37,043 bases of DNA, from the IMG/VR virus record IMGVR_UViG_3300037329_000040, one strand, 5' to 3'. Within the stretch, counting starts at the first letter, position 1. Each line of letters opens with the position of its first letter. Positions 5,049 to 32,497 of the stretch are shown piece after piece. The notes beneath the pieces were generated by a model that was not told the origin of the DNA, searched no databases, and saw nothing but the letters and a program-made list of their open reading frames with translations. Source of the DNA: an uncultured virus (IMG/VR IMGVR_UViG_3300037329_000040) (Duplodnaviria > Heunggongvirae > Uroviricota > Caudoviricetes). A program made the position numbers and the translations under genes.

Positions 5049-5223
5049 AATATTATTTTACCATACTTTTGTTTTTAAATTATGAATGATTTCATTTCTT
5101 ATGTGGTGGTATAAGGCTATCGCATTAGTATGCTGTGAGGAAGTTACTTTATAAACATACCAGCATAGTGATCTGGCATGTTCATGTAAGTTTTCATTAC
5201 TGTGTTATAAAGCTTTAGCATTA
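5049..5223 (-). repeat. Copy 2 of the ~175-bp duplicated intergenic element
   Basis: Aligns with 2644..2816. Confidence 0.9.
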
Positions 5224-7101: not shown

Positions 7102-9935
7102 TATCCTAATCTCCATCCAAATGTAGCGCTCGTGTAAATAAAGACAACTGCAAAGCCTGCAACGTCTAGGTCAGCATCTTCAGAGAGGCCGTTTATAAGG
7201 TTGCCGTTTCTGGCAACCAAAATTGATGTAGCTGCCCCCGTACCATCTAGGACCTGAACCTCATCGCCCGCTGAGGGGGATGCCGGCAGGGTAAGAGTGA
7301 TACCAGAAGCAACTGTGGTTATGTAGCGATATCCAGCTACGCAGGAGGTATTGACACCGATTGAGGACACAACCTCGGTCTTTTTTTGACCAATTGAAGT
7401 GGCCACAGTAGTAGAAAAGTTTTCGTCATCACCCAATGCAGCTGCAAGCTCATTTAGTGTATCCAGAGTACCTGGAGCGGCATCTATCAGGCCTGAGATT
7501 TTATTATCTACCTCGGTTGAAGTATCGTAAGATGAAAGGTCAATACTTATGTTTCTTGTGCCAGGATCATAGCTTAACGGTAAGTCGGCAGACACCACAC
7601 CAGGTTTGCCTTGTATTCCCTGAGAACCAGTTGCACCCTTAAAGTTTGTTGCAGCCTCCACCCAGTAAGAGTCGTAGTAGATAAAGAATCTTGCATTCGT
7701 GCTATTAAACCAGCCATCGCCAGGCTCTGGACTATTAGGGGCTGTTTCTGACACCAAAAACTTGCCCTGAGCACCCGTTGGCCCAACCATTACAGAAACT
7801 GCTTCTACCCAAAAGTTATCGTAATAGATATAAAGAACACCCTCATCGGAGTTCCACCAAAGTGTGTTTGGCTCTACCTCAGAAGGTGGGGCATCCCCGA
7901 CCTCGACAGAGGCGCCTCCTGATGCATAGCTAAGTAAATCCCAGGTGTCAATTCCATCACCAATTTTTAGCTTGTTGGTGTCAGACTCAAAAGCAGCCTC
8001 TCCTAATCCCAGAACAGGGTTTTCGGATAACCACTCTGCGGCTGTACTTCTTCTTAAGTTTATGGAAGACTGTGGAACATCTGAGGTTCCGCCGTCCACG
8101 ACTAGAGAGTCATAGTCGAGAGAGATCGTTGAGCTAACTGAATCATAATCTATGGGAGATGTGGCTTGAAGAGCTCCAATGCTACCGGTATCTCCCTTTG
8201 GAATAACAAAATCAAATACTGCACTTCCTGTGGTTCCAACGTTTGTGACAACAACACTGTCCTGTGGGGCACCTGTAGTTACAGTTCCAACCGATATGGT
8301 AGCAGCCTCGCCCTGAATACCTTGCGCACCCTGCAAAGCAAGTGGATACCAGTGAGCAGATGCGTTGTCGGGTATTTCTCCAACTACAGGATCTCCAGAT
8401 GCAAACCAAGAGGCTGCTTCGTAAAATACTGCATCATTGTTTACGTAGTCCGCAGAAGCCTCCCAGGGCCCCTGCCAGGTGATACCAGTAGCACCAGTTT
8501 CTCCGATAGGCCCTTGAATACCAGTTAGTCCAGCTGGAATGGTAAAATCAAATACCGCTTCTTCTGCTGTGCCAGAATTAACTACTGTTGCTGAGTTTCC
8601 TGTTGTTACTGTTGTTACAGTTCCTACTGAAAGGCTGGCTGCAAGGCCTTGAGGAATCTCAAAGTCGAATACTGCATCCCCGGTCGTACCGGAGTTAGAT
8701 ATGGTTGCAGGATCCGCTGAAGTTACTGTTTCTACGGTTCCAACTGCAATAGTTGCAGCTACACCTTGCACACCTTGTATTCCAGCTGGAAGTGTAAAGT
8801 CGAATACCGCATCCTCTGGCGTTCCAGAGTTGGTCACGTCAGCTGGTGTTCCGCTTGTCACGGTAACAATCGTACCAACCTCAATCGTTGCAGCAGCACC
8901 TTGAGGAATCTCGAAGTCAAAGACAGCGTCTCCGGTTGTTCCAGAGTTAGCGACCGTTGCTGGATCTGAAGATGGCACGGTAGCTACCGACCCAACTTCA
9001 ACTGTGGCTGCCTCTCCCTGAATACCTACAGGAATAGTAAAGTCAAATACAGCGTTGGTTGTGTCTCCAGAGTTTGTTACAGAAGCGGGGGTCCCCACAG
9101 GGACCGTTGTTGTTGTTCCCGCAGTGGCAGATCCTGCTAGACCTTGTGGAATAACAAAATCAAAGGTCGCGTCTCCATTTGTACCGGAGTTAGTAATCGT
9201 AGGCTGAGTTCCAGCATCGGATGCGGAAACAGATCCTACAGCAATCGTTGCGGCTTCTCCCTGAATACCCTGAACTCCGGATGGAATAGTAAAATCAAAA
9301 ACTGCGGCAATGTCTGTGCCAACATTCGTTACTAATGGTGGGTCTGTCGGTGCTCCGCTAGTAACGTCTCCAACCTCGATAGTTGCAGCTACAGCTCCTG
9401 CTGCAAATAGCTCCCAGTCAGATCCCGGCTGCGCCGGTGCATACCCAGAAGCATAGTTTAAGTTTGGCCCAGTAGCGTAATAGGTACTGCCTTCTGACTC
9501 TACTAAATCATTTTCAGCATAGCTCTCGGCATTGTCATAAGTTCCCAGCCAATTTATAGGCAATATTACGCCAGATACTGTTGCAGCAGAAAAGTCTACA
9601 GTTCCAGTAAAGCTTGGAGAATCTATATCTGCCTTATCGTCAAGAAGTCCAATAACTGTGCTTGCAAAGTTGGAATCGTCGTTTAAGGCCGCTGCCAGTT
9701 CATTTAGGGTATCGAGACTTGAAGGGGCAGAGTCAATTATTTGATTAGTTATCAGGGTGTAGATGCTGGATGAAGTTTCGTAATATGGAAGAGCTCCCCA
9801 GTTAGAAGCTCCGTTTCCAATCTTAAATTTAGTTGTGTCGGCCTCAAAGCCTATTTCTCCAGATGCCAAGATAGGATTAACGGAGGACCACTCTGAGGCA
9901 AGTCCCCTACGGTTTACAATTCTTGTGTACGACAT
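7101..9935 (-). CDS. Long tail fibre: two Mtd-N-like domains, about ten AVFDFxIP repeats, collagen-like spacers, C-terminal LTLPASP domain
   Basis: RRG...W...NP.L..GE.GFE.DT.K.KIG.G...W..L.Y occurs at the N-terminus and again near residue 625; GxQG triplets. Confidence 0.85.
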   Translation of the reverse strand: MSYTRIVNRRGLASEWSSVNPILASGEIGFEADTTKFKIGNGASNWGALPYYETSSSIYTLITNQIIDSAPSSLDTLNELAAALNDDSNFASTVIGLLDDKADIDSPSFTGTVDFSAATVSGVILPINWLGTYDNAESYAENDLVESEGSTYYATGPNLNYASGYAPAQPGSDWELFAAGAVAATIEVGDVTSGAPTDPPLVTNVGTDIAAVFDFTIPSGVQGIQGEAATIAVGSVSASDAGTQPTITNSGTNGDATFDFVIPQGLAGSATAGTTTTVPVGTPASVTNSGDTTNAVFDFTIPVGIQGEAATVEVGSVATVPSSDPATVANSGTTGDAVFDFEIPQGAAATIEVGTIVTVTSGTPADVTNSGTPEDAVFDFTLPAGIQGVQGVAATIAVGTVETVTSADPATISNSGTTGDAVFDFEIPQGLAASLSVGTVTTVTTGNSATVVNSGTAEEAVFDFTIPAGLTGIQGPIGETGATGITWQGPWEASADYVNNDAVFYEAASWFASGDPVVGEIPDNASAHWYPLALQGAQGIQGEAATISVGTVTTGAPQDSVVVTNVGTTGSAVFDFVIPKGDTGSIGALQATSPIDYDSVSSTISLDYDSLVVDGGTSDVPQSSINLRRSTAAEWLSENPVLGLGEAAFESDTNKLKIGDGIDTWDLLSYASGGASVEVGDAPPSEVEPNTLWWNSDEGVLYIYYDNFWVEAVSVMVGPTGAQGKFLVSETAPNSPEPGDGWFNSTNARFFIYYDSYWVEAATNFKGATGSQGIQGKPGVVSADLPLSYDPGTRNISIDLSSYDTSTEVDNKISGLIDAAPGTLDTLNELAAALGDDENFSTTVATSIGQKKTEVVSSIGVNTSCVAGYRYITTVASGITLTLPASPSAGDEVQVLDGTGAATSILVARNGNLINGLSEDADLDVAGFAVVFIYTSATFGWRLG

Positions 9936-18333: not shown

Positions 18334-18411
18334 AAAAAAGAAGTAGCTATTTAGGGGACAGACGCCGGTACCCAGGAGGGTGGGTATGAGAGACATCCCA
18401 GGTACCAGCTA
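18334..18411 (-). ncRNA. Candidate stem-loop sRNA with a C/U-rich (anti-RBS) loop
   Basis: TGGTATACT at 18426-18418. The 14-bp stem (18409-18396/18377-18364) is fully paired only on the minus strand (3 G-U); loop UGUCUCUCAUACCCACCC; U-tract near 18334-18339. Confidence 0.6.
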
Positions 18412-19771: not shown

Positions 19772-20029
19772 AATACAAATATTGACAGATCTGAATATGT
19801 ATGATATAAGGCAAAATCTGAAAAAATCTATATTTAGCAAAATCTGAATTTTGACTAGTAGGGAACCATACGCACTCACAGCAGAATATTCCCAATTGTT
19901 AGTCCGCACACTCCTGGCGTCATAAAAACAATTGACCCGTACGCCCTATAAAGTAATGCACCCCTGCCAGGTTGTAGAAAACCTACAAAGGAATGGCTAA
20001 AACTTTGTAGGATAAATCTTTTTGTTTAT

Positions 20030-20070
20030 CGGCGTGTCGACTTGACTTTTTGAGGTTTAGGGTATAGTCT
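20030..20070 (+). promoter_or_regulatory. First early promoter: CGGCGTGTCG box plus TTGACT-N17-TAGTCT
   Basis: The same box abuts -35 elements at 20582, 20703, 21358, 21613, 21826 and 22422. Confidence 0.8.
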
Positions 20071-20106
20071 TTAGGTATAGATAAAGAAACATAGAAAGGA
20101 TAAAAA

Positions 20107-20241
20107 ATGTTTTTAGATTCAATTTCAACCTCCGTAGGTTTCTGCGAGATTTGCTCCAATGCAACACCACAGGTGTTCGTTGAGGATTTCGGACAGGAAT
20201 GTTGCGAAATCTGCTACATCGCTTACGGCGAATGTAACTAG
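20107..20241 (+). CDS. 44-aa Zn-finger-like early protein (MFLDSISTSVGFCEICSN...CCEICYIAYGECN)
   Basis: GAAAGGATAA RBS; paralog of 21698..21808. Confidence 0.75.
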   Translation: MFLDSISTSVGFCEICSNATPQVFVEDFGQECCEICYIAYGECN

Positions 20242-20295
20242 ATAAAGTCTTACCCTAGTGGTAAGCTTTTAGTATCTTAGAAAGGATAAAGTAAA

Positions 20296-20460
20296 ATGAA
20301 TAGATTCAAAGAATTGGATACGCTGTCACTATCAGACATCGAGGTGGAAATTGAAACAATGATTTCTATCGTAGGTGATACCCCTAGTGATAGTGAAATC
20401 AAATACATTAGCGGTCTAATGGTAATGGCTAACACCCTAGGTTCAACGAGAGGCTGGTAA
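20296..20460 (+). CDS. 54-aa hypothetical early protein
   Basis: GAAAGGATAA RBS; promoter variant at 20246. Confidence 0.7.
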   Translation: MNRFKELDTLSLSDIEVEIETMISIVGDTPSDSEIKYISGLMVMANTLGSTRGW

Positions 20461-20542
20461 CATAATGATAACGCTCACTTTTGATACTTGGGAGGACTAT
20501 GACAACGCTATTGCTGGAATTGCTAGTGTTGTAACCGAAATG

Positions 20543-20573
20543 AATACCCCAGAAAAATAGGGGTATTTTTTTT
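20543..20573 (+). terminator. Intrinsic terminator after the small ORF 20465..20560
   Basis: AATACCCC/GGGGTATT stem plus T-run. Confidence 0.7.
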
Positions 20574-20644
20574 CCATTCATCGGCGTGTCGACTTGACAA
20601 ATTTTCGATCGTGGGCGGGTCCTAGTGGTCTAATGCCCTTATGA

Positions 20645-20660
20645 CCACTATATGTAGTGG
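20645..20660. promoter_or_regulatory. NrdR-box-like palindrome CCACTATATGTAGTGG
   Basis: Resembles acaCwAtATaTwGtg; a second TAGTGG half-site lies 32 bp upstream. Confidence 0.45.
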
Positions 20661-20775
20661 CCTATAAACCCCTGGAGCGTTACCAAACTGTTACATAATA
20701 CACGGCGTGTCGGCTTGACTTTTCAGCTGTAAGGTGTAGACTCTAACTATACAAAGAAAGATAAAGGATAAAGAA

Positions 20776-20916
20776 ATGAAGAAGATTTTTGTTAGCAAAG
20801 AAAATGACTCAATGGTTAGCTTTAGTGCAAGAGCGGATAATGTTGATAACGCTATTGCTAAGCTTGAGGGGATGGGCTACACCATCCTAATGGTAACTGG
20901 TAATGAGTCCATCTAA
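20776..20916 (+). CDS. 46-aa hypothetical early protein
   Basis: AAAGGATAA RBS, own promoter. Confidence 0.7.
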   Translation: MKKIFVSKENDSMVSFSARADNVDNAIAKLEGMGYTILMVTGNESI

Positions 20917-20918
20917 AA

Positions 20919-20940
20919 TGTCAGACCCCTATGGTAAGGT
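20919..20940 (+). promoter_or_regulatory. Representative TGTC-N12-TANNNT (PafBC/RecA-NDp-like) promoter; 19 copies through 33019
   Basis: TGTCAG-ACCCCTATGG-TAAGGT; invariant spacing in all copies. Confidence 0.85.
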
Positions 20941-20946
20941 AGAACT

Positions 20947-21081
20947 ATGAAGAAATCAAGAATGAATAAAGAAGAAAAAATGTTTTACTCAACAGTCCTA
21001 GCGGGCATCAAGTCTGGCAATAAGCCAGTAGGTGCAGCTTGGCTTAGGTGGATAGACTTGCAGCTTAGCAAGACATTCTAA
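20947..21081 (+). CDS. 44-aa basic leaderless early protein
   Basis: ATG 6 nt after the -10 of the 20919 promoter. Confidence 0.65.
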   Translation: MKKSRMNKEEKMFYSTVLAGIKSGNKPVGAAWLRWIDLQLSKTF

Positions 21082-21133
21082 ACTGTCTGACCCTAGTACT
21101 AAGATAAACATACAACAAGAAAAGGATAAGCTA

Positions 21134-21268
21134 ATGATAGTAGAAATAGAATTGAATGACGGCACAACAATTACCCCTGTATACTCTCCAGAGCACTATG
21201 ACGATGTAGTCAACTGGTGTACTGATCAGTACATCAAGGGCGGTATAGTATCTTGGATGGTGCTCTAA
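21134..21268 (+). CDS. 44-aa hypothetical protein
   Basis: AAAGGATAA RBS; coupled to the small TM ORF 21268..21357. Confidence 0.65.
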   Translation: MIVEIELNDGTTITPVYSPEHYDDVVNWCTDQYIKGGIVSWMVL

Positions 21269-21425
21269 TGGATAACCTAACCATAGTGTCAATAGCTATA
21301 ACTCTAGTGTCTATTGTATTGTTAGTAATGTTTGCTACCTGGCCTATAAAAAAATAGTGGCGTGTCGTGTTGATAATGTCTCACCTATGCACTATGCTAT
21401 AGATATACAAACAAAGGATAAAGAA

Positions 21426-21575
21426 ATGACAAAGTCAAAAAGAATTAGCGTATACGCCATCTGCCTAGCAGGCACAGCTTACCTAGCCTACCTATTGCTT
21501 AGGGTTGCATCACTAGGCTACACTTGGAACTGGATTTGGAACGAAGACTTTGCAAGCCGTCTAGGTAGCCTATAA
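21426..21575 (+). CDS. Small membrane protein (start corrected to MTKSKR)
   Basis: AAAGGATAA RBS; hydrophobic helix. Confidence 0.7.
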   Translation: MTKSKRISVYAICLAGTAYLAYLLLRVASLGYTWNWIWNEDFASRLGSL

Positions 21576-21697
21576 CCGTTACCGTTTTGTTATAAAAAAC
21601 TTTCGCCAAACACGGCGTGTCGACTTGACTTTTGGGAGATATGGTATAGACTAATAGTATAAATAAAGATAAAGAAATAAAAGAAAGGAAGTAAAAA

Positions 21698-21808
21698 ATG
21701 ATTGATTTCAAATTTTGCGAAATATGTTCAAACACTGTTCCAACTGTAGAGGTTGAAGGTGAAACCGCTTGCGTAAATTGCTACGAAGCGTACGGCGAGA
21801 TAAACTAA
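21698..21808 (+). CDS. 36-aa Zn-finger-like protein (MIDFKFCEICSN...CVNCYEAYGEIN)
   Basis: AGAAAGGA RBS; paralog of 20107..20241. Confidence 0.75.
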   Translation: MIDFKFCEICSNTVPTVEVEGETACVNCYEAYGEIN

Positions 21809-21979
21809 ATAGTTTATTTCTCCTTCGGCGTGTCGCTTGACATTTGCCGAATTTTTTGCCGGGCACATTTTGATCAAGAAAAAGCATTTAAGAAGAAGGT
21901 TAAGAACACCTACAAACTCCCCTACAAAATGTCAGACCCCTGGTGTAGGATTATCTTATAATCGAAAGGATACCAACCA

Positions 21980-22024
21980 ATGGCTTGTAATTGTGAAGAT
22001 AGACCTTGTTGCGGCTGCAACTAA
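21980..22024 (+). CDS. 14-aa Cys-rich micropeptide MACNCEDRPCCGCN
   Basis: Own promoter (21930) and CGAAAGGATA RBS. Confidence 0.65.
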   Translation: MACNCEDRPCCGCN

Positions 22025-22074
22025 AATGTCAGACCCCTGTGCTAAGATAAACCTATAACCAGAAAAGGATAATA

Positions 22075-22206
22075 ATGAATTGTGGATTTTGTAAGTTTGC
22101 TAAGGCAACTGAGGCTGTATTGCTAATAGACGACACAGTGAACGCACTGTGCCCAAAGTGTGCCTTTAGCGTTGAAGAATTTACTGTGAATGTGGGGTGT
22201 TTGTGA
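22075..22206 (+). CDS. 43-aa CxxC/CxxC protein
   Basis: Promoter at 22027; AAAGGATAATA RBS. Confidence 0.65.
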   Translation: MNCGFCKFAKATEAVLLIDDTVNALCPKCAFSVEEFTVNVGCL

Positions 22207-22487
22207 GACACTACTTCAGTAACTTTCTAGATGATGACTGTATTCGCTGTGAGGAATGCGGAAGCAATTCCTATACCGCTCCAGTCGTGTGCCCTGGTAA
22301 AATGTAGCAGGTCGTATTCCAGAAATGGAATGCCGCCCGGGCGCTTTGTTGCCACAATAAAACGTTTAAGAACTAACCACTACGATCCTTGGATCTTTTT
22401 TGTAACAAAATGATAACGTTACGGCGTGTCGTTTGCATAATGTCTGCCACCTGTGATAGGTTATACATATAACGCAAAGGATGACTA

Positions 22488-22682
22488 ATGACAAAAATGT
22501 ATCGCAAGACCACCTGCAACGGCTGTGGATTTACTCAGACAGCTACCTTGTCTTACTACCTTGACGCCAAGGCGTGGAGGGCTAGCCACACCCTAGCCGT
22601 TCACAACGAGCTATGGGATAAGAAAAACGATTTGGCTAGGGGAGAGTTCTTAGACTTTCTTCTTGCTGGCAGAGTTGCCTAA
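22488..22682 (+). CDS. Hypothetical early protein (CxxC)
   Basis: ORF track; composite promoter at 22402-22462. Confidence 0.7.
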   Translation: MTKMYRKTTCNGCGFTQTATLSYYLDAKAWRASHTLAVHNELWDKKNDLARGEFLDFLLAGRVA

Positions 22683-22734
22683 AATGTCTGACCCCTATGC
22701 TAAGATAAACTTACAAACAGAAAAGGATAAATAA

Positions 22735-22917
22735 ATGCCATACAACGCCAAAGGTTATGACCTCGCAGAAACCAGCTTGAAATTGCTAAAAGAGGAGTTC
22801 GGTCTAGCTTCTTCTTACGCTAAAATGACTGGCTATCTTATTGCCAGCGTTTCAGAATCAGACGCTGAAAGAATACTTGAAATAGTAAAGCAGTCAATTT
22901 CAGAGAGGGCTGAGTAA
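22735..22917 (+). CDS. Hypothetical early protein
   Basis: Promoter at 22685; AAAGGATAA RBS. Confidence 0.7.
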   Translation: MPYNAKGYDLAETSLKLLKEEFGLASSYAKMTGYLIASVSESDAERILEIVKQSISERAE

Positions 22918-23079
22918 ATGTCTGACCCAAAAGAAATAGAGTTTGACGAATTCCTAGACGAGCTTTTTCCACCTTATCAAATTGGAGGTTTTAGATTCTA
23001 TGCCTCACAGGTGCTAAAGACTCTTGACCCAATAGCCTACAGGATTTCCTTTTCAGAATACGAGAGCGATAATGACTAA
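22918..23079 (+). CDS. 53-aa acidic phage protein (FDEFLDE...DPIAYR)
   Basis: Directly follows the previous stop; open frame. Confidence 0.65.
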   Translation: MSDPKEIEFDEFLDELFPPYQIGGFRFYASQVLKTLDPIAYRISFSEYESDND

Positions 23080-23364
23080 GCAGATGACTACAGAAGAACT
23101 CGAACAACTTATTTTCAAAATAGACTTGATGTTGTCAGATAATCCTGATAGACTATTCGTAACGAAAGAAGGTAGCTGATGATTTTTTACAATGGTTTCA
23201 ACTTGCTAGTAGACATAATCCTAGTATCTGCGGCAGTCCTTATCACTCTTGGCTATGCTAAGCGTAAGTATTTCTCAACTAAGCGAGAAAGTTTTATTCC
23301 TCCTTTTTAGGGGGTAATAAAGGGGTGAGATCCTGAAACGATCTAACCAAGCCACCCAACAAAG

Positions 23365-23412
23365 ATAGCACCTAGAGAGTTATTATCCTTTCGCTCTGGG
23401 TGCTATTTTTTT
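23365..23412 (+). ncRNA. Anti-RBS stem-loop A1 (also terminator-like)
   Basis: 13-bp stem, 16-nt loop AGTTATTATCCTTTCG, followed by a T-run. Confidence 0.7.
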
Positions 23413-23518
23413 GCCCCCGGCCCCTTTTTATTCCTGGCAGAAAGTTTTTAAGAAGTCAATTAAGAACACCTCCAAAACTCCCTAGAAAAATGTCTTACCC
23501 CTGATGTATAGTGTAACT

Positions 23519-23782
23519 ATGGAAGATGGAACTTACAGATACGAGAATGCAGCGTTCACACCTATCCAGGAAATTTTTGGGTATTGGGTTGCTAAAGAAG
23601 AAATAGCCCGTGACGAAATAGAAGATGGTATGACTATTGGTGTTTGGACTGATAAAGACGGCAGACTTTGGATAGATAGAAGTTATCATCTGTCTGACTT
23701 GGTGCCCGCAATCGCTCTAGCCCAAGTTTGGAATCAGAAAGCAATCTATGACATTGCCAAGAATGAAGCAATAAATGTCTGA
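23519..23782 (+). CDS. Hypothetical protein, leaderless (MEDGTY...)
   Basis: ATG 6 nt after TATAGT; G.W.D......D...A..L.....QKAIYD pattern. Confidence 0.7.
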   Translation: MEDGTYRYENAAFTPIQEIFGYWVAKEEIARDEIEDGMTIGVWTDKDGRLWIDRSYHLSDLVPAIALAQVWNQKAIYDIAKNEAINV

Positions 23783-23803
23783 CCCCTGTGCTATAGTTTC
23801 ACT

Positions 23804-23968
23804 ATGAGCAAATTAGGAAGATACAACGAGGCAAGGCGCAAGGTTGAAAGCCAAGCGTTATTTTACAACATACTAAAAAACCCCCACCTAGTAGCGCAGG
23901 TCGATAAGTATAAGGGTTCAAGGCAGTCTAACAACTATAATGCTATCAAAGAAAGTAGGAGTGAATAA
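23804..23968 (+). CDS. 54-aa basic leaderless protein
   Basis: ATG 6 nt after the -10 of the 23776 promoter. Confidence 0.6.
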   Translation: MSKLGRYNEARRKVESQALFYNILKNPHLVAQVDKYKGSRQSNNYNAIKESRSE

Positions 23969-24139
23969 TGGCTAAAACACTATTTTGGGGAAAGACTAGT
24001 TGCGACACTTGCGATCGTGTTATGCATGATGCCCAAGTCTATTACTTTGATTCCCGACACTTATGCCTAGTTTGCTATGCCAGCGAACAAAATGTCTTAG
24101 CCCTAGTGTAAGCTTATCTTATAACCGAAAGGATACAAA

Positions 24140-24334
24140 ATGGCAAAATACGATGTAGTAGTTCAACTAACAGGTCGTGATGGAAACGCTTTTGCGGTAA
24201 TGGGAGCGGTAAAGTCTGCACTAAAAAAGTCTGGAGCAACCGCTTCAGAAATTAGCGAGTATCTTTCTGCCAGTATGTCGGGAGACTACGACAACCTTTT
24301 GAGGGTTGCTATGGAATACGTGGAGGTAAAATAA
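24140..24334 (+). CDS. Conserved phage protein (DGNAFA.MG...SGDY..LL family)
   Basis: Recognisable motif; CGAAAGGATA RBS. Confidence 0.75.
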   Translation: MAKYDVVVQLTGRDGNAFAVMGAVKSALKKSGATASEISEYLSASMSGDYDNLLRVAMEYVEVK

Positions 24335-24603
24335 TGGGAATGATGACAGCGATAGAATTGCAAGAGCAAGGCATGAGCCTAGAGAATCAGATAGCTATTC
24401 ACTTTAGTAGTAATTGCTATCCCCCAATTCCGCATCAAATGATACCTACGGCAATAACAGCTATTGACGCTTATTGGGAAGATGAATTAGATAAACTAAT
24501 ACCGTTGCCGCAAGGTGTAAGCTTTAGGGGCAATACCGAGGTGTCTGCCAGGAACGTAATCAATTCATACTACTTAGGCGCATGGTGTTCGGAAGATAGT
24601 TGA
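24334..24603 (+). CDS. Hypothetical protein
   Basis: TAATG-coupled; H...N.YPP.P motif. Confidence 0.7.
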   Translation: MGMMTAIELQEQGMSLENQIAIHFSSNCYPPIPHQMIPTAITAIDAYWEDELDKLIPLPQGVSFRGNTEVSARNVINSYYLGAWCSEDS

Positions 24604-24654
24604 CAAACAGCTGAGAACATGCTAAGCTATAATCTATAACCCCTACAGAGAGAC

Positions 24655-25188
24655 TTGCCCCAAATGCTAGAAACTTACATTGAGAAATACTCCAAGCTTG
24701 TATCCCAAGCAACCCTAGGCCAAGTTGAGCAAGCAGCAATTTGGTACATGGACGCTGAGCGCATTGCTGAAAAAGTAGCAATAAACTTAGGGACCACCTT
24801 AGAGATAGGGGCCAGTGTTGTAAGTTCATTCTCACCTCGAGAGCGGTGGACCATGAACATCGCTAGGGCCATAGCATTCTCACTAGGGCAAGAGGTCCGC
24901 TGCCTAAAGAATAACATCCGTATGGCCGAGAAATCACTCACTGACGGGTTTGGTGCCCTAAAAGGCCTAAAGACTAATGCATTCGCCAAGGCTATTGCAG
25001 GTGACCAAGAGCAAGTTGTGATAGACGTCTGGATGATGAAAGCCGTTGACCACGCCAAGTCCTCACCTAGCCAAAGTGACTATTATGCACTTAGCCAAGC
25101 AGTAAAGGCAGTTGCCAAAATCCATGGCCTAACACCTAGAACAACCCAAGCAATTATCTGGATAGTAAAGAGAGGTTCACATGAATAA
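24655..25188 (+). CDS. Conserved phage protein, DUF7178-like (possible DNA glycosylase-like fold)
   Basis: WY...SP...W..N...G.K..AF..AI.GD...V.ID.W...P...QA..W motif series; TTGACA promoter at 24600. Confidence 0.55.
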   Translation: MPQMLETYIEKYSKLVSQATLGQVEQAAIWYMDAERIAEKVAINLGTTLEIGASVVSSFSPRERWTMNIARAIAFSLGQEVRCLKNNIRMAEKSLTDGFGALKGLKTNAFAKAIAGDQEQVVIDVWMMKAVDHAKSSPSQSDYYALSQAVKAVAKIHGLTPRTTQAIIWIVKRGSHE

Positions 25189-25336
25189 GGTAACTCCAAT
25201 TAGGACAGAGAGTCAACACCCAGCATTGCTAAGTATGCGCAATAAGATAATTAGCCTCGAGGAAAGCATCGTTGATATGCAACGTCAACTAGACTTCATG
25301 AGAATAGAAATTACTAAGCTTCAGTAGGGGTACTGA

Positions 25337-25364
25337 CGTCCTGGCCATGACGAAAAACTGGCTA
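25337..25364 (+). ncRNA. H-type pseudoknot in a 3' UTR, copy 1
   Basis: CGTC/GACG plus TGGCCA/TGGCTA; covaries with 26460..26488. Confidence 0.6.
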
Positions 25365-25636
25365 TTTTTTTCTGTCTGTGCCCGCCCCCTTTTGCCACAG
25401 AAATCAATTAAGAAGATCTACGAAAACCCCCTACAAACTTTGTAGGTTTTCTACTTGACTTTCATCAACAGATAGGGCATACTAGTATTAGTTGAAAAGG
25501 GAAAAGCAAGACAGAAGTTGTTACCAAAAAGTTATCAAATAGACTTGACAAACACCCTTTCATCTGCGATAATAGACCTATCAACAAATCGTTGGTAATA
25601 ATCAAGACAGTCCCTCTGGGGCGGTAAGGAAGCAAA

Positions 25637-25783
25637 ATGAACGAAGTAACTGTTGGCTCACAGTTCACCACAGCAAAGTCTGGCGTTACAGGCATTGTTC
25701 AGGAAGTAGTAAAGAACACTAATGGCACTTACAGAGTTCGACTTGATGTTTCTGGTCAAGAGCGTTGGACTACTGTAAAGTAG
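25637..25783 (+). CDS. 48-aa beta-rich (SH3-like) protein
   Basis: AAGGAAG RBS; two SigA promoters upstream (25455, 25545). Confidence 0.65.
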   Translation: MNEVTVGSQFTTAKSGVTGIVQEVVKNTNGTYRVRLDVSGQERWTTVK

Positions 25784-25794
25784 TATCATTAGAC

Positions 25795-25836
25795 TTGGGG
25801 AAGATAGAGTTATTATCCTTTCGCTATCTTCCCCAA
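25795..25836 (+). ncRNA. Anti-RBS stem-loop A2
   Basis: Perfect 13-bp stem unrelated to A1; identical 16-nt loop. Confidence 0.7.
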
Positions 25837-25989
25837 TAAAATAACTAAACATAGGGGTGGTGTAGGACTACATAAGAGCAGTAAGATAGAGTCCTTATAC
25901 GACTATTGCCACCACCCCATAAAATGTCCTACCCCTATTGTATAATTACTAAGTAAGCAAATAACCCCTAATGAAAGTAGAACCCTATA

Positions 25990-26436
25990 ATGGCTAGAAG
26001 CATTTCCGTAAAAATCCCAACAGCTCTCCTAATCGCAGAAATTGAAGCAAAGATTGCAAGCATTGACGCATCAGTTGAAAGCTATGAAGATGACTTGGCA
26101 AAGTATGAGGTGGACAAAGAGCAGTATCGCAAAGACCTAGCTGTTGCAATTAGCAAAGTTATGTTGAATAGCGATACCATTGGCTATGAGTATGACGCTC
26201 CAATTCGTGTTGTTACCTATGGAGATAGTCGTATTCAGATTGAGTTCAAGCCAAGTGCAGTAGCTGGAATACCTGAGATGCCACAACAGCCACAAGAGCC
26301 TAACAGGAAAATGTGGTATGGTCGTGAATACTACTCTCCAAAAGAAATGCTCCAGAAAAACCTCAAGGTATTGCGTATGACCACCCAAGAGGAAGTATCT
26401 GGCTCAACCTATGGGGCGTTGATAGAGTTCCTATAA
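25990..26436 (+). CDS. Hypothetical coiled-coil protein
   Basis: 148-aa ORF; promoter at 25925. Confidence 0.75.
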   Translation: MARSISVKIPTALLIAEIEAKIASIDASVESYEDDLAKYEVDKEQYRKDLAVAISKVMLNSDTIGYEYDAPIRVVTYGDSRIQIEFKPSAVAGIPEMPQQPQEPNRKMWYGREYYSPKEMLQKNLKVLRMTTQEEVSGSTYGALIEFL

Positions 26437-26459
26437 ACCTGCAAAGGTTTAGGGAAAAT

Positions 26460-26488
26460 GACCTGAGTATGTCTAGGTAAACTGCTCA
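26460..26488 (+). ncRNA. H-type pseudoknot in a 3' UTR, copy 2
   Basis: GAC/GTC plus TGAGTA/TGCTCA. Confidence 0.6.
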
Positions 26489-26549
26489 CCCTAAAGTGTC
26501 TGACCCCAATGCTAGTCTGTATGTATAACCAAGGAAGCAGGTATCCCAA

Positions 26550-27053
26550 ATGGGAACACGCAACATAACTAAGGTAATCAAAGATGGCAACACAGTAGTT
26601 TCTCAGTATGGACAATGGGACGGATACCCTGAGGGACAGGGCGTTACCGCTCTAAACTTTATCCGTAACCCTGAGATGATTGAACTACTAACCCATAACA
26701 TTGACAACCTATACACGATGAGTGATACAGTATGGGCTTTAGAGATTGATAAGATTCAGAAAGCAAATCTTGACGATAAGGAGTTTGAAAAGCTCTGGCC
26801 TACTATGTCAAGAAACACTTGCGCAGACATTCTAGAAGTGATTGCTACTAGTGATGGAATGTTGCCTATTGTTCTAGACCTAGAATTTGAGTTTGATGAG
26901 CTAATGTGTGAAGGTATCTATACCCTCAATTTAGATAACAGAACCTTTGTTTCTACCTATGAAGGAATTACTCTCGTTCTCACCTTTGATGAGATACAGG
27001 CAGGACTAACCAACGATGACTATGTTTGGGCGTTCACTTTAGAAAAAGCATAA
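26550..27053 (+). CDS. Conserved phage protein (MGTR...Y..WDGYP family)
   Basis: Motif recognition; promoter at 26497. Confidence 0.7.
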   Translation: MGTRNITKVIKDGNTVVSQYGQWDGYPEGQGVTALNFIRNPEMIELLTHNIDNLYTMSDTVWALEIDKIQKANLDDKEFEKLWPTMSRNTCADILEVIATSDGMLPIVLDLEFEFDELMCEGIYTLNLDNRTFVSTYEGITLVLTFDEIQAGLTNDDYVWAFTLEKA

Positions 27054-27216
27054 GCAACACGCCGATCCCCTGGACTTGACATCTGGGGGATCTGGCCCCC
27101 GGGCCCCTCGTTACCAAAACGCAATTAAGAAGAAGAAGAAAAACCCCTCCAGGGCTTGCATAATGTCACCCCCTTGGTGTATAGTAGTACTATCAAACAA
27201 AGAGAGAAGACCCCTT

Positions 27217-28212
27217 ATGTCGCACGAAATTGAAACAGTAAATGGCCAGTCCGCATTCGCATCACTACGTCAGCCTGCATGGCATGGATTGGGAACCGTA
27301 TTTGATGAGGAAGTTACAACCAAGGAAATGCTAGACCTAGCACACCTTTCAGATTGGAACGTCCGTCTAGAAGATGTTGCAATTCCCGAAGGCTTTGCAA
27401 GTGACAAGAGCTTTTCTTTTGTTACACGCACTAACCCTTTTGACAAAGAGCAGAACGATGTTCTAGGCGTGGTTGGTGAGCGTTATGTTCCATTGCAGAA
27501 CGAAGACTTGTTTGACTTTGGAGACCTAATGTTGGATGGTGGAGGACGTTGGGAGACAGCTGGCTCTATCAAGGGTGGCCGTCAAGTATTCGGTTCTCTG
27601 GCTCTTGAGCGTGAGAGTATCTTAGACCCTAGTGGCGTAGCCGATAAAGTCAACACGTATTTGCTAATCAACACAAGCCACGATGGTTCAGTTGCCATCC
27701 AAGCTTCTATTACTCCAGTTCGTGTTGTATGCGCTAACACTCTCAACTTTGCTCTTAGGGGTAAAGCTAAGCAGTCCTTCAAGATTAGGCACACAGCAAC
27801 CGCTTCTGGCAAGGTTCAACAAGCTCGTGAGGCACTTGGATTAGCTAACAAGTACATGGATGAGTTTGACCTTATGGCACAGCAGATGATTGAGTCAGAA
27901 ATCTCTAAAGCCAAGTTTGACAAGATTGTTGCTTTGGCATACCCTGCACCAGTAGGCGAAGATAAGAAGGGTTCGTTCAAGAAGTATGGAACGAAGATTG
28001 ACGTAATCAACTCTATTTACTACAGCGATACAACCGCCATGATTAGTGGAACGGCTTGGGGCGCTCTAAACGCCATGACAGAACGTTTGGATTGGTATCG
28101 CACAGCTCGTGGTGGTTCCAATGAGTCTATCTTGGCTTCCGCTTCTGGCTTTGACCCAATGATAAATGCAGAGAAAAACCGTTTGCTTCAGTTGGTATTA
28201 GCCAACGCATAG
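27217..28212 (+). CDS. DUF932 / phage-plasmid TIGR03299-like protein
   Basis: PAWHGLG, LGVVG.RY...QN, ETAGS..GG, SHDGS, TPVRVVCANTL, RHT, GTAWG..NA..E motifs; start corrected to MSHEIE. Confidence 0.9.
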   Translation: MSHEIETVNGQSAFASLRQPAWHGLGTVFDEEVTTKEMLDLAHLSDWNVRLEDVAIPEGFASDKSFSFVTRTNPFDKEQNDVLGVVGERYVPLQNEDLFDFGDLMLDGGGRWETAGSIKGGRQVFGSLALERESILDPSGVADKVNTYLLINTSHDGSVAIQASITPVRVVCANTLNFALRGKAKQSFKIRHTATASGKVQQAREALGLANKYMDEFDLMAQQMIESEISKAKFDKIVALAYPAPVGEDKKGSFKKYGTKIDVINSIYYSDTTAMISGTAWGALNAMTERLDWYRTARGGSNESILASASGFDPMINAEKNRLLQLVLANA

Positions 28213-28228
28213 CAAAACGAAAAGCAGG

Positions 28229-28257
28229 TGGCCTTCCCAAAACTGGGAGGGCCATTT
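28229..28257 (+). terminator. Hairpin terminator after DUF932
   Basis: TGGCCTTCCCA-AAAC-TGGGAGGGCCA. Confidence 0.65.
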
Positions 28258-28310
28258 GACTTTCACGAAGATCTGTGCCCGGCCCCACTTTTGATAATAA
28301 ATAATATATA

Positions 28311-28353
28311 TAGTTATCAAAAAGACTTTAAGAAGAAGGGTAAAAACCCCTCG
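28311..28353 (+). repeat. 43-bp perfect repeat of 30212..30254 (partial third copy near 30276)
   Basis: TAGTTATCAAAAAGACTTTAAGAAGAAGGGTAAAAACCCCTCG. Confidence 0.9.
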
Positions 28354-28421
28354 AGAGGTACTTGCATAATGTCTGACCCCCATGGTAGTATTGATTTATC
28401 AAAGAAAGAGAGAGACCCCCA

Positions 28422-28619
28422 ATGACCTATGTACTCAGACCAGAATCATACGTTTCAGAAGATGGCAACTACGGTAGTGGCATGCTGCTTACCTTTTCTT
28501 ATGACCAGCTAACCGAAGACCAGTGGGGTGTTCTTGACACCCTAGCCGACAGCGATAAAATGTCGTATGCCGTTGCTATACTAAAGGGACACGAAGACCT
28601 ATCAGAATGGGAAGACTAA
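28422..28619 (+). CDS. Acidic hypothetical protein
   Basis: Promoter at 28370; GAAAGAGAGAGA RBS. Confidence 0.7.
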   Translation: MTYVLRPESYVSEDGNYGSGMLLTFSYDQLTEDQWGVLDTLADSDKMSYAVAILKGHEDLSEWED

Positions 28620-29223
28620 TGGCTGAAGTAACTATGGGCAGCACCTGGACTAATTTCTTTAGTATGCCAGTTATAACTAATAACGATACCCTGGAGGATG
28701 AAGATGAATCTTGAATACTGGCAAGGTGTGTATGATACCTGTGAGTATCTTAGAGATGAATTGGGCCTTGAGGGGATGATGGATACTCATATGGCTGTTC
28801 AGGCTATTGAGGAGCTAGGGCTATGAGTGAGTACCGTATATATTCTGATGGCACACTTTATCTAAATAAGATAAAGGCTGATAGGCTATACGACGTATAT
28901 CGGTGTGTCGGTTGCGGTAAGTCTTGGAGGTCTACCGCTAATAAAATGGGACACAAAGAGGCTACCTGCAGGAGGTATCGTTGACAGTATCAAAGGCTAA
29001 GGCCAGACGTGATGGAACCTATGTTCATGTTCCTAAAATGTCATACCCTACCCCTACAATAGGAACTATGAAAACAACAAAGCCATGTCCCAACCACGAA
29101 GGTGCCTTTGATTGCACACCATTCTGTAACAAGTGTGAAGGAGAGCAAGAGTATAATGTCTGAGGGTAATGATAGACTAGAGGAACTAACAGACGAAGAA
29201 CTACTACACTTAGGGAGAAGCTA

Positions 29224-29409
29224 ATGTCAGAAACAGGATACTTTTTTAGTAAGAAACAGGCTGCTATGATTGCAGAACTAATTGCTCAGAAGGTAGAGGA
29301 AGACCATTCCAAATACCATTGTCTAGTAGAAGCGTATGACAAGCTAACTAGAGGTTGGACTTGGAAATCAGATGACCACGAAGCAAGAAAGCTAGAGGAC
29401 GCAAAATGA
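29224..29409 (+). CDS. Hypothetical protein
   Basis: GGGAG RBS; ORF track. Confidence 0.65.
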   Translation: MSETGYFFSKKQAAMIAELIAQKVEEDHSKYHCLVEAYDKLTRGWTWKSDDHEARKLEDAK

Positions 29410-29513
29410 GTGCTTGGACAGACGGTAGCATAATCAACGAAGATGTGTTGAATAGCCTAACCAAAGAGCAACTAGATAAACTAGCAGAGATGTTGAAAGA
29501 CGTATAACCCAAG

Positions 29514-29786
29514 ATGAAAATTCGCAAAAGACAAAGTAGGGAGACTACCTTGACGTTTATGACTAAAGAGTTTACCAAGCTTGACCAGTTCCTAGACTAC
29601 ATGGTTAGTCATCTCTATACTCTCTATGATGAGGTAGACCAGATAACTTGGGAGGACATTGAGTTTGAATACCTGAGTGGTAGCATTGACACTACCCAAC
29701 ACTACCTTGCCAAGTGTGGTAAGGACTACATGGCGCTCAACCAATACCAGGAAATCTTGGAGGAACAAAAATGGAAAAATTCATAG
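29514..29786 (+). CDS. Acidic hypothetical protein (start uncertain)
   Basis: ORF track. Confidence 0.6.
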   Translation: MKIRKRQSRETTLTFMTKEFTKLDQFLDYMVSHLYTLYDEVDQITWEDIEFEYLSGSIDTTQHYLAKCGKDYMALNQYQEILEEQKWKNS

Positions 29787-29986
29787 AGACTGATAGGAAC
29801 AACGTTGAGTTCCATCGCCGACTCTGGTCAGAGATAGCCAAAGAGAATGGTTGGTACAACGAACCGTTCTACGTCCAAACATTCCAAAACGAGGCAGGTG
29901 AGATTTGGGACAGTGTTAGCAGTCGCGACATGACCCAGGACCGCGTATACCTCGGAGAGGAATTTGACGGCGAGGATGACGACTGA
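29771..29986 (+). CDS. Acidic hypothetical protein
   Basis: GGAGG RBS. Confidence 0.7.
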   Translation: MEKFIETDRNNVEFHRRLWSEIAKENGWYNEPFYVQTFQNEAGEIWDSVSSRDMTQDRVYLGEEFDGEDDD

Positions 29987-30358
29987 GGAGAAGGTCCCCA
30001 CGGGTAGGTAAAGAAGACTTTGAATAAACAACAGACAGGGAGACACACAATGGAAGATGAATACGTCGTAGAGCTATTTGAGATGGCTGAGAAGGGTGAG
30101 ATTTCTTACCAAGAGCTGAACATGGAATTGGAGACAGGTGGCTTTGACGGCGACCTGATCGATTTCCTCTAGCAGGACCCTTCGGGGCCCGGGTCTCTAT
30201 AACAGTATTAGTAGTTATCAAAAAGACTTTAAGAAGAAGGGTAAAAACCCCTCGGGTCCTTCTATCAAGACTATTAGTTATTAAAAAGACTTTAAGAAGA
30301 AGGTTGACAACCCCCTAGGATCATGAGACAATAGAGTATCAAAGAAAGTAGGATTTCA

Positions 30359-30529
30359 ATGGCGGAATACACCGTAAGTATTTATGAAAAGATTGCTCAC
30401 ATTGTAGACGTAGAAGCTGAATCAGAAGATGAAGCATACGACAAAGCCTACGAGGCTATCTCTTTGGGTAAGCCCTATGACATCGAAGCTGTGGAATTTA
30501 CTGGTGAGTGGAGAGCAGAGCTTAGCTAA
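30359..30529 (+). CDS. 56-aa acidic protein (VEAESEDEA motif, DpnD/PcfM-like)
   Basis: AGAAAGTAGGA RBS; TTGACA promoter at 30304. Confidence 0.65.
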   Translation: MAEYTVSIYEKIAHIVDVEAESEDEAYDKAYEAISLGKPYDIEAVEFTGEWRAELS

Positions 30530-30580
30530 AATGTCAGACCCCACTGTTATAATAAAAGTATAAACGAAAGTAGGATTTTA

Positions 30581-32376: not shown

Positions 32377-32456
32377 TTAAATAAAGATTGACAGAGTCGA
32401 GCCTAGCTCCTTTGTCATAGCGGACAACGTGGTTAGGGGTAACTAGTTGTCCGCAC

Positions 32457-32497
32457 TGGAGGTGTTGAGGGTTCCTACTTTCTCCTTGACACCTCCA
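32457..32497 (+). ncRNA. Anti-RBS stem-loop B (third of three tandem hairpins)
   Basis: 14-bp stem, loop GTTCCTACTTTCT; the 3' arm contains the TTGACA of a TTGACA-N17-TACAAT promoter. Confidence 0.65.

Follow-up and report, generated by a model that had tools for sequence, protein, structure and literature searches.

The window analysed here is the whole stretch of 37,043 nucleotides recorded as IMGVR_UViG_3300037329_000040 (IMG/VR; uncultured virus, Caudoviricetes). It carries tail-fibre-like genes on the minus strand (1–19 kb) and many small genes on the plus strand from 20 kb onward, at a G+C content of ~43%. Among the plus-strand genes lie three hairpins, A1, A2 and A3, whose loops are complementary to ribosome-binding sites (RBSs) of the same strand. 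These hairpins are a real, conserved and uncatalogued phage RNA structure.

23361..23410, plus strand: hairpin A1, LOOP1 class; core stem 23365–23377 / 23394–23406, loop 23378–23393
25795..25836, plus strand: hairpin A2, LOOP1 class; 13-bp perfect stem TTGGGGAAGATAG / CTATCTTCCCCAA, loop 25808–25823
32457..32497, plus strand: hairpin A3, LOOP2 class; 15-bp stem, loop 32472–32482 TTCCTACTTTC; homologues in related viral contigs G003 and G006

The stems of A1–A3 are G+C-rich (13–17 bp), and the loops comprise 16, 16 and 11 nt. The A1 arms ATAGCACCTAGAG and CTCTGGGTGCTAT form 13 bp, including one U.G pair, and are extendable to 17 bp. The stem of A2 is unrelated to that of A1, and the 16-nt loop AGTTATTATCCTTTCG is identical in both. 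Direct reading therefore bears out the original prediction, made from the sequence alone, which had placed two hairpins with different 13-bp stems and the same 16-nt loop at 23365–23406 and 25795–25836. With up to 3 mismatches the loop 16-mer occurs 5 times in the window (0.47 expected), a number reached by 0/100 shuffles. RNA folding gives −23.4 kcal/mol for A1 (z −6.2) and −19.8 kcal/mol for A2 (z −5.6). A1 folds better on the plus strand than on the minus strand (−23.4 versus −16.1 kcal/mol), as does A3. A run of T residues directly follows the A1 stem, which probably doubles as an intrinsic terminator; a homologue in G005 ends in a T run as well, both have a matching A run upstream, and compensatory changes are found between the two. 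A2 (cmsearch score 54.4 bits) and A3 have no T run, and the 3' arm of A3 contains the TTGACA (32486–32491) of the next promoter. A3 was absent from the original prediction; this third hairpin, with a second loop class antisense to a second RBS class, is new here. Its G003 homologue, with the loop AGTTATCCTACTTTCG, was found by covariance-model search.

Directly upstream of A3 lies a second hairpin (32420–32454, plus strand), which has a counterpart in G003 (locus L032, ~8440–8462). The stems of these two are unrelated, but both have the loop core UUAGGGGUA, which is rich in purines and in part complementary to the CCUA of the A3 loop. Pairing of the A1 loop with the upstream GGGGGUAAU as a pseudoknot was considered and rejected, since GGGGGUAAU is predicted to be locked in a hairpin of its own.

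LOOP1 (..UUAUCCUUUC..) is complementary to the site class RBS1 (GAAAGGAUAA), and LOOP2 (CCUACUUUC) is complementary to RBS2 (AGAAAGUAGGA). Their sites in the window are the following.

20094..20103, plus strand: RBS1 site GAAAGGATAA, 10-nt complement, start 20107
20280..20289, plus strand: RBS1 site, 10-nt complement, start 20296
20763..20771, plus strand: RBS1 site, 9-nt complement, start 20776
21121..21129, plus strand: RBS1 site, 9-nt complement, start 21134
21413..21421, plus strand: RBS1 site, 9-nt complement, start 21426
21963..21972, plus strand: RBS1 site CGAAAGGATA, 10-nt complement, 14-codon open reading frame (ORF) from 21980
22064..22075, plus strand: RBS1 site, 12-nt complement up to the A of ATG, start 22075
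22722..22730, plus strand: RBS1 site, 9-nt complement, start 22735
24126..24135, plus strand: RBS1 site CGAAAGGATA, 10-nt complement, start 24140; between A1 and A2
23950..23960, plus strand: RBS2 site AGAAAGTAGGA, 11-nt complement to the A3 loop, start 23968; between A1 and A2
25973..25980, plus strand: RBS2 site GAAAGTAG, 8-nt complement, start 25990
30343..30353, plus strand: RBS2 site AGAAAGTAGGA, 11-nt complement, start 30359
30566..30575, plus strand: RBS2 site GAAAGTAGGA, 10-nt complement, start 30581

The complementarity was assessed at 48 gene starts of the window, taken from rough gene calls, with 2000 composition-preserving loop shuffles. At 9/48 starts, all within 20.1–24.2 kb, 9 nt or more are perfectly complementary to the loop of A1 and A2, a count of starts that 0/2000 shuffled loops reach. 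For the A3 loop, a complement of at least 9 nt is present at 3/48 starts (reached by 23/2000 shuffled loops), and one of 8–11 nt at four (23968, 25990, 30359, 30581). Two further starts, 21698 and 22488, carry a 7-nt complement to the A1/A2 loop. The nine RBS matches listed in the original prediction (20094 to 24126) were thus all recovered, each with 9–12 nt of perfect complement. Its statement that this RBS class ends at ~24.2 kb holds as well: in the rough gene calls no later plus-strand start uses AAAGGAT. Throughout the phage group, GAAAGTAG is often used as an RBS word.

The hairpins were found to recur in related viral contigs. A scan of all fetched loci (1.34 Mb) for hairpins with TCCTTTC in the loop gave 35 rows, 14 of which were dropped: 13 were A/T- or G.U-rich pseudo-stems of 8–10 bp around opposite-strand RBSs, and locus L039 had an A/T-rich 11-bp stem. 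The 21 distinct hairpins accepted all lie on the gene strand and possess G+C-rich stems of 8–19 bp that are unrelated in sequence. Their loops (14–19 nt) have the form ..TT.yTT(A/C)TCCTTTC(T).., with TCCTTTC invariant in 21/21. A covariance model built from ten accepted hairpins gave 22 matches (15 distinct) in 0.73 Mb. In the cmsearch alignment of these 22 matches, which is fitted to the model and so favours structure, 13/13 of the stem pairs change on both sides; the raw scan listing agrees with it. In the same alignment 91.4% of the pairing cells are paired, compared with 52.3% in shuffles (0/500 reach the observed value), and when the 3' partners are slid by up to 3 columns the pairing is at most 60.3%. 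The original prediction had called for a check of stem covariation with loop conservation in related phages, and both are present. Compensation is also seen between orthologues, where a closing C-G in L189 becomes U-A in L196 and a G-C in L197b becomes A-U in L204. G.U pairs account for about 9% of the cells; on the opposite strand these positions would be mismatched, so the structured molecule is the plus-strand RNA.

The covariance model R1 finds loops of 16–19 nt and misses those of 14 nt (L189 type), even unfiltered with an expectation value (E) of up to 10; these members were recovered by the separate hairpin scan. An Rfam search of the whole window gave no match at the gathering score, RF01695 and RF01066 included, and the best sub-threshold rows were unrelated families (E 0.52–8.7). 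An exact 16-mer scan of viral contigs was of little use, as only 3 of its 20 matches are relatives and the others are apparently fortuitous.

Two other hairpin families with variable stems and conserved loops were noticed. One, with the 10-nt loop GATCCGCCTC, is located on the promoter strand of distant relatives (L040, L042, L046, L047, L049, L053, L054 and others). The other, with the loop TCTCTCATACCCACC, is found in the window at 18364–18409 (minus strand) and in L034, L044, L070, L081, L102 and L031. In the window it is on the strand of the structural genes; in relatives it lies opposite the promoter word, usually with a T run after it. No RBS complement was found for either loop.

Four features (RBS1, RBS2, LOOP1 and LOOP2) were mapped on the early strand of the window and of G003–G007, in the following order.

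Window: RBS1 x8 (20095–22722), LOOP1 (A1), RBS2 and RBS1, LOOP1 (A2), RBS2 x4 (25974–30567), LOOP2 (A3)
G003, fragment: RBS1, LOOP1, RBS2, LOOP1, RBS2 x4, LOOP2
G004, fragment: RBS1, then LOOP1; the stretch ends before any LOOP2
G005, complete, 111 kb: 8 RBS1 sites, all within 71406–74327; two LOOP1 hairpins; no LOOP2 hairpin
G006, complete, 116 kb: RBS1 x5 (74031–75030), LOOP1 (77874), RBS2 x5 (78018–82780), LOOP2 at 83608 (hairpin 83590–83631)
G007, complete, 112 kb: no LOOP1 or LOOP2 hairpin; a single stray AAAGGAT-plus-start, a single stray AAAGTAG-plus-start, no block

Elsewhere on the same strand G006 has just one more RBS1 site and one more RBS2 site; a neighbouring protein is 47% identical to that of the window. 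The sole AAAGTAG-plus-start site of G005 (78455) is without the GAAAGTAG word. Four lineages agree in the order of features: the window, G003, G006 and, as far as its stretch extends, G004. Each hairpin class is thus situated 3' of most genes with the matching RBS, though some sites interleave, and no hairpin of a class occurs where that RBS class is missing.

All hairpins occupy 3' untranslated positions between a stop codon and the next promoter, which they adjoin or overlap. A1 is 50 nt past a stop codon, A2 starts 12 nt past the stop of an ORF of 48 amino acids, and the next promoter is found 0–90 nt 3' of each hairpin. The 48-amino-acid ORF has an RBS of its own, GGTAAGGAAGC, which is not RBS1. 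The promoter word GGCGTGTCGACTTGAC occurs 7 times before early genes (~20,030–22,440, plus strand) and in at least 149 viral contigs, several of 96–116 kb. A second recurring promoter type is AAATGTC.GACCCCT.TGCTA...T, some copies of which are leaderless, for example those before 23520 and 23804. Both types are followed by the RBS word (A/G)AAAGGATAA, 5–9 nt before ATG, and the conserved word keeps this distance to the start codon whichever promoter type precedes it.

25545..25573, plus strand: consensus-like promoter TTGACA, 17 nt, TG-n-GATAAT; 11/12 matches
25342..25371, plus strand: small terminator-like hairpin TGGCCA / TGGCTA with an 11-nt loop and T7, within the CGTCCTGGCC module

Judging by its position, the promoter at 25545–25573 would drive a transcript of ~255 nt containing the 48-amino-acid ORF and then A2. 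The CGTCCTGGCC module stands directly 3' of the LOOP1 hairpin in distant relatives; in the window there is no LOOP1 hairpin at that place.

A parallel was found in some Cluster K mycobacteriophages. Their start-associated sequence (SAS) is a 13-bp word that extends beyond the Shine-Dalgarno sequence and is located 3–7 bp before the starts of 11–19 non-structural genes (PMC3203893). The same paper left open whether RNA or protein binds the SAS and contrasted it with the 13-bp stoperators of L5; its passages on the SAS mention neither antisense nor a hairpin. A 2025 survey of 188 Cluster K genomes (PMC12699233) describes SAS function as still unverified, and its passages on the SAS likewise speak of neither. 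In Adephagia, 16 forward copies (29744–58173) are accompanied by a single reverse copy (58682–58694). The latter is located in the apical loop (12 nt) of a hairpin with the stem GTCGACCAGCGTTGCGCG / CGCGCCCTGGTCGAC, on the gene strand, in the gap between genes 92 and 93. According to RNA-seq, late transcription of Adephagia starts in this gap (PMC11373665).

JF704105 58650..58715 (L235 1469–1534), gene strand: reverse-SAS hairpin of Adephagia; conserved

This hairpin region is conserved in 137 phage records. Among eight phages aligned, the loop is kept in five, a variant loop is present in one and an unrelated loop in two; the five that keep it show G-C to A-U and G.U changes in the stem. In Adephagia, Peanam and LilPharaoh, all forward SAS lie upstream of the reverse copy in the hairpin loop; in LilPharaoh a stray reverse match with 2 mismatches occurs at 8188 as well. 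The SAS system and the window are alike in having a conserved start word and an antisense copy of it in the loop of a 3' hairpin. They differ in the word (GGGATAGGAGCCC for the SAS, which was not encountered at the starts of the window, where a different word is used), in the phage group, in the presence of one class only and in the frequent lack of the hairpin. The Cluster K SAS is best regarded as an analogue and not as the same system, that is, as an apparently independent parallel at the early/late boundary, optional there too. Directly upstream of the Adephagia reverse-SAS hairpin a further conserved hairpin is present.

On the sequence evidence there is a strong case for a functional link between loop and RBS. 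RNA-RNA pairing would be the simplest link, because loop and RBS are complementary on the same strand, and we lean towards the reading, without great confidence, that such pairing provides translational control of gene blocks. In this mechanism A1, A2 and A3 would be structured RNAs that close early transcription units at their 3' ends, and in which a stable stem holds open a loop of 11–19 nt, antisense to the Shine-Dalgarno sequence and spacer common to a mostly 5' gene block. Pairing between loop and RBS would be in competition with 30S binding and might attract RNases as well. It could act in trans, once stable 3' fragments have accumulated, or in cis, within a single message. Translation of a block would then be throttled once transcription reaches the block end, resulting in block-by-block shut-off. 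Transcription and stability of the hairpins, pairing, repression, its timing and its action in cis or in trans are all putative. A broader generalization is more doubtful than it is probable: some actinophages could give each temporal block a private RBS address and a closing antisense hairpin, forming a protein-free multi-stage translational timer, which would also explain the SAS, a puzzle since 2011, in those Cluster K phages that have the loop copy at the early/late boundary.

The antisense-RNA interpretation of the original prediction is thus supported in several respects: the RNA is conserved, co-varying and plus-stranded, its loop is antisense to the RBS of the early block, and a second loop class fits a second RBS class. 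Free-standing small RNAs, by contrast, find no support in the 3' untranslated positions of the hairpins and the probable terminator role of A1. The interpretation fails at the fine scale of co-evolution in G005, where both loops have changed to AGTTTCTAATCCTTTCA (the complement of GGATTAG) and the RBSs are still GGATAA/GGATGA. Similarly, the more distant L187 and L198 keep UAUCC loops, and the nearby RBSs are mostly GGAAA. The co-evolution of loop and RBS that had been proposed as a check is therefore seen in the presence and absence of classes, in the window and three complete genomes, and is not seen base by base. These mismatches weigh against control by pairing, as do several other points. 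Co-occurrence is drawn from the window plus three complete genomes. The hairpin is dispensable, being absent from G007 and from 9/24 related loci; in Cluster K, Keshu, SirPhilip and TM4 have 11–17 forward SAS and no reverse copy. Part of the match between LOOP1 and RBS1 arises because RBS1 is a Shine-Dalgarno sequence and both partners are constrained by the ribosome tail. The families with GATCCGCCTC and TCTCTCATACCCACC loops, lacking an RBS complement, mean that loop conservation alone does not imply RBS pairing. A duplex-energy scan of LOOP1 against the window was unspecific (87 plus-strand and 69 minus-strand sites at or below −9 kcal/mol), with some non-RBS sites scoring better. For positions 19900–26500 of the window no RNA run was found, all 24 listed runs being DNA and labelled salt lake metagenome.

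Instead of regulating by pairing, the hairpins could be ordinary 3'-end elements (a terminator, a 3' stabiliser or an RNase III site) whose large loop is maintained as the binding site of a phage or host protein, such as a termination or antitermination factor, with the RBS complementarity being functionless. We consider this unlikely. It would account for the location of all hairpins between stop codon and next promoter, for the T run and upstream A run of A1 and its G005 homologue, and for the two loop families without RBS complement. It would also suit a CGTCCTGG-like word that begins 0–4 nt after the stem end in 10/21 accepted hairpins and that, in L187 and L189, is the beginning of a small hairpin with a T-rich stretch after it, as well as a hairpin of L191 at the A2 position whose loop is unrelated. 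However, a T run directly follows the stem in just 2/21 accepted hairpins, loops of 11–19 nt are atypical for intrinsic terminators, and a terminator scan limited to loops of 3–8 nt lists none of A1, A2 and A3, so that the hairpins are mostly not terminators themselves. Nor does this explanation require that two loop classes each fit their own RBS class over 9–12 nt, or that each class be located mostly 3' of the matching block and be absent without it, since a protein site needs no antisense.

Mimicry of the 3' tail of 16S rRNA by the loop, which would serve as a decoy for a nuclease or toxin attacking the anti-Shine-Dalgarno or as a sponge for host Shine-Dalgarno sequences, seems very improbable. 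Actinobacterial endoribonuclease toxins do cut within the anti-Shine-Dalgarno tail, the invariant LOOP1 core UCCUUUC is identical to the last bases of the 16S tail, and the variable part of the loop tracks RBS changes poorly. The tail compared here is the actinobacterial one quoted in the original prediction, which may not be that of the host; it could match 7 nt, whereas loop and phage RBS match over 10–12 nt. The claim made there that the loop is also a 16S mimic fits LOOP1, but LOOP2 (CCUACUUUC) departs from the quoted tail and yet fits RBS2 over 11 nt. Furthermore, LOOP1 has UA where 16S has CC, just as RBS1 has UA after GGA. The loops thus follow the phage sites and not the ribosome tail, and the hairpins co-occur with the RBS classes of the phage itself. 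Least probable of all, by our estimate, is that the shared word is an asymmetric protein site in duplex DNA, like Cluster A stoperators, oriented one way behind promoters and the opposite way within terminator palindromes. RBS1 does follow two repeated promoter types at a short, constant spacing, and a comparison with the 13-bp stoperators of L5, drawn as a contrast, was made for the SAS (PMC3203893). Against such a site, the stem co-variation with G.U pairs and the better plus-strand folds point to RNA, the word stays 5–9 nt from start codons regardless of the promoter type, and the long inverted repeats of unrelated sequence on either side of the reversed copy are not accounted for by a DNA site.

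If control by pairing is correct, it would be RNA-only viral control of whole gene blocks, with one loop addressing ~10 genes and a second loop a second set, and thus a new way of building temporal order into a genome. It would also provide a testable candidate for the SAS partner, as SAS mycobacteriophages grow and can be engineered in Mycobacterium smegmatis, and compact orthogonal RBS/silencer pairs for actinobacterial synthetic biology. If it is wrong, the family is still a phage RNA structure that is conserved, absent from catalogues and under striking constraint in its loop.

Several known systems resemble parts of this arrangement. The c4 RNA of P1 and P7 and its target come from one operon. 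It is a structured phage RNA (RF01695) with complements probably in loops, which pairs around the RBS of a phage mRNA and blocks translation (PMC12197685). It has one target and an immunity function, unlike the elements considered here, which have 9–11 targets per loop class, two classes and a position at the 3' end of a block, and no similarity in sequence or Rfam model exists between c4 and the window hairpins. In icaR of S. aureus (PMC3868564) and hbs of B. subtilis (PMC5737220), an anti-Shine-Dalgarno in the 3' untranslated region (UTR) pairs with the Shine-Dalgarno sequence and controls translation and RNase III cleavage. These are single cellular genes regulated in cis, whereas the motif here is displayed in a loop for a phage gene block and its action in cis is putative. 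RNAIII and the Rsa RNAs of S. aureus and the actinobacterial 6C RNA (RF01066) pair through pyrimidine-rich loops, including that of a terminator hairpin, with the Shine-Dalgarno sequences of several mRNAs. They are independent, host-encoded transcripts with C-rich loops; those of the window are U/C-rich, with no Rfam match. The RegB endoribonuclease and RegA repressor of T4 shut off many early mRNAs at ribosome-binding sites. Both are proteins, while the effector proposed here is an RNA loop.

In open-access papers and preprints no description of antisense hairpins against an RBS class in this layout was found. The original prediction, which knew of no description of the architecture, was nevertheless too strong, because loop-displayed RBS antisense is known from c4, RNAIII and the icaR 3' UTR. 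What appears distinct, as read from the sequence, is that a whole RBS class is addressed, that two classes are matched and that the hairpin is placed at the block end. New in this analysis are the second class, the order of the blocks, the co-occurrence across whole genomes and the parallel in Cluster K.

Close relatives of the window are the viral contigs G001–G004. Complete relatives with terminal repeats measure 111–116 kb, and the phage genome is about 105–115 kb. A DUF932 protein is encoded at 27217–28212 (Pfam E 5e-50). Its best matches, among 608 records, are in phages of Streptomyces, Mycobacterium, Microbacterium and Arthrobacter (top 54–56% identity), so the host is probably an actinobacterium. 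A search of the window for tRNA genes found none.

In contigs from four DNA runs, 0/40 listed substitutions (of 81 in total) fall inside A1/A2, which is uninformative as ~1.3 would be expected. The contig of run X12 switches inside A2 (window position 25800) to a different LOOP1-type sequence (..GCGTTTCTTATCCTT..), which suggests a population variant and recombination at hairpins.

The 48-amino-acid protein encoded directly before A2 (25637–25783, plus strand) is highly conserved across the group, with 80% mean column identity over 14 sequences. A small four-stranded barrel is predicted for it (predicted local distance difference test score, pLDDT, 77), with a weak likeness to Tudor/SH3/KOW (Pfam E 0.006, below the cut-off; Foldseek best E 0.057). 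A role as an RNA chaperone was considered and dropped, as the Pfam and Foldseek signals are too weak to give it a basis.

A spacer module TTTAAGAAG...TTAAGAAC...CAAACT is repeated on the plus strand at 21870–21925, 23436–23485 and 25395–25440, and is also present in relatives; it sits between terminator-like hairpins and the next promoter. On the minus strand two near-identical 13-bp hairpins with the loop ATCACTATG (2744–2778 and 5151–5185) are located upstream of two tail-fibre-like gene sets. Hairpins made up of inverted repeats of GGGTTATCCACA occur in L038, L047, L064, L065, L066, L089 and L096; this word resembles a DnaA box, and the sites may be origin-like.

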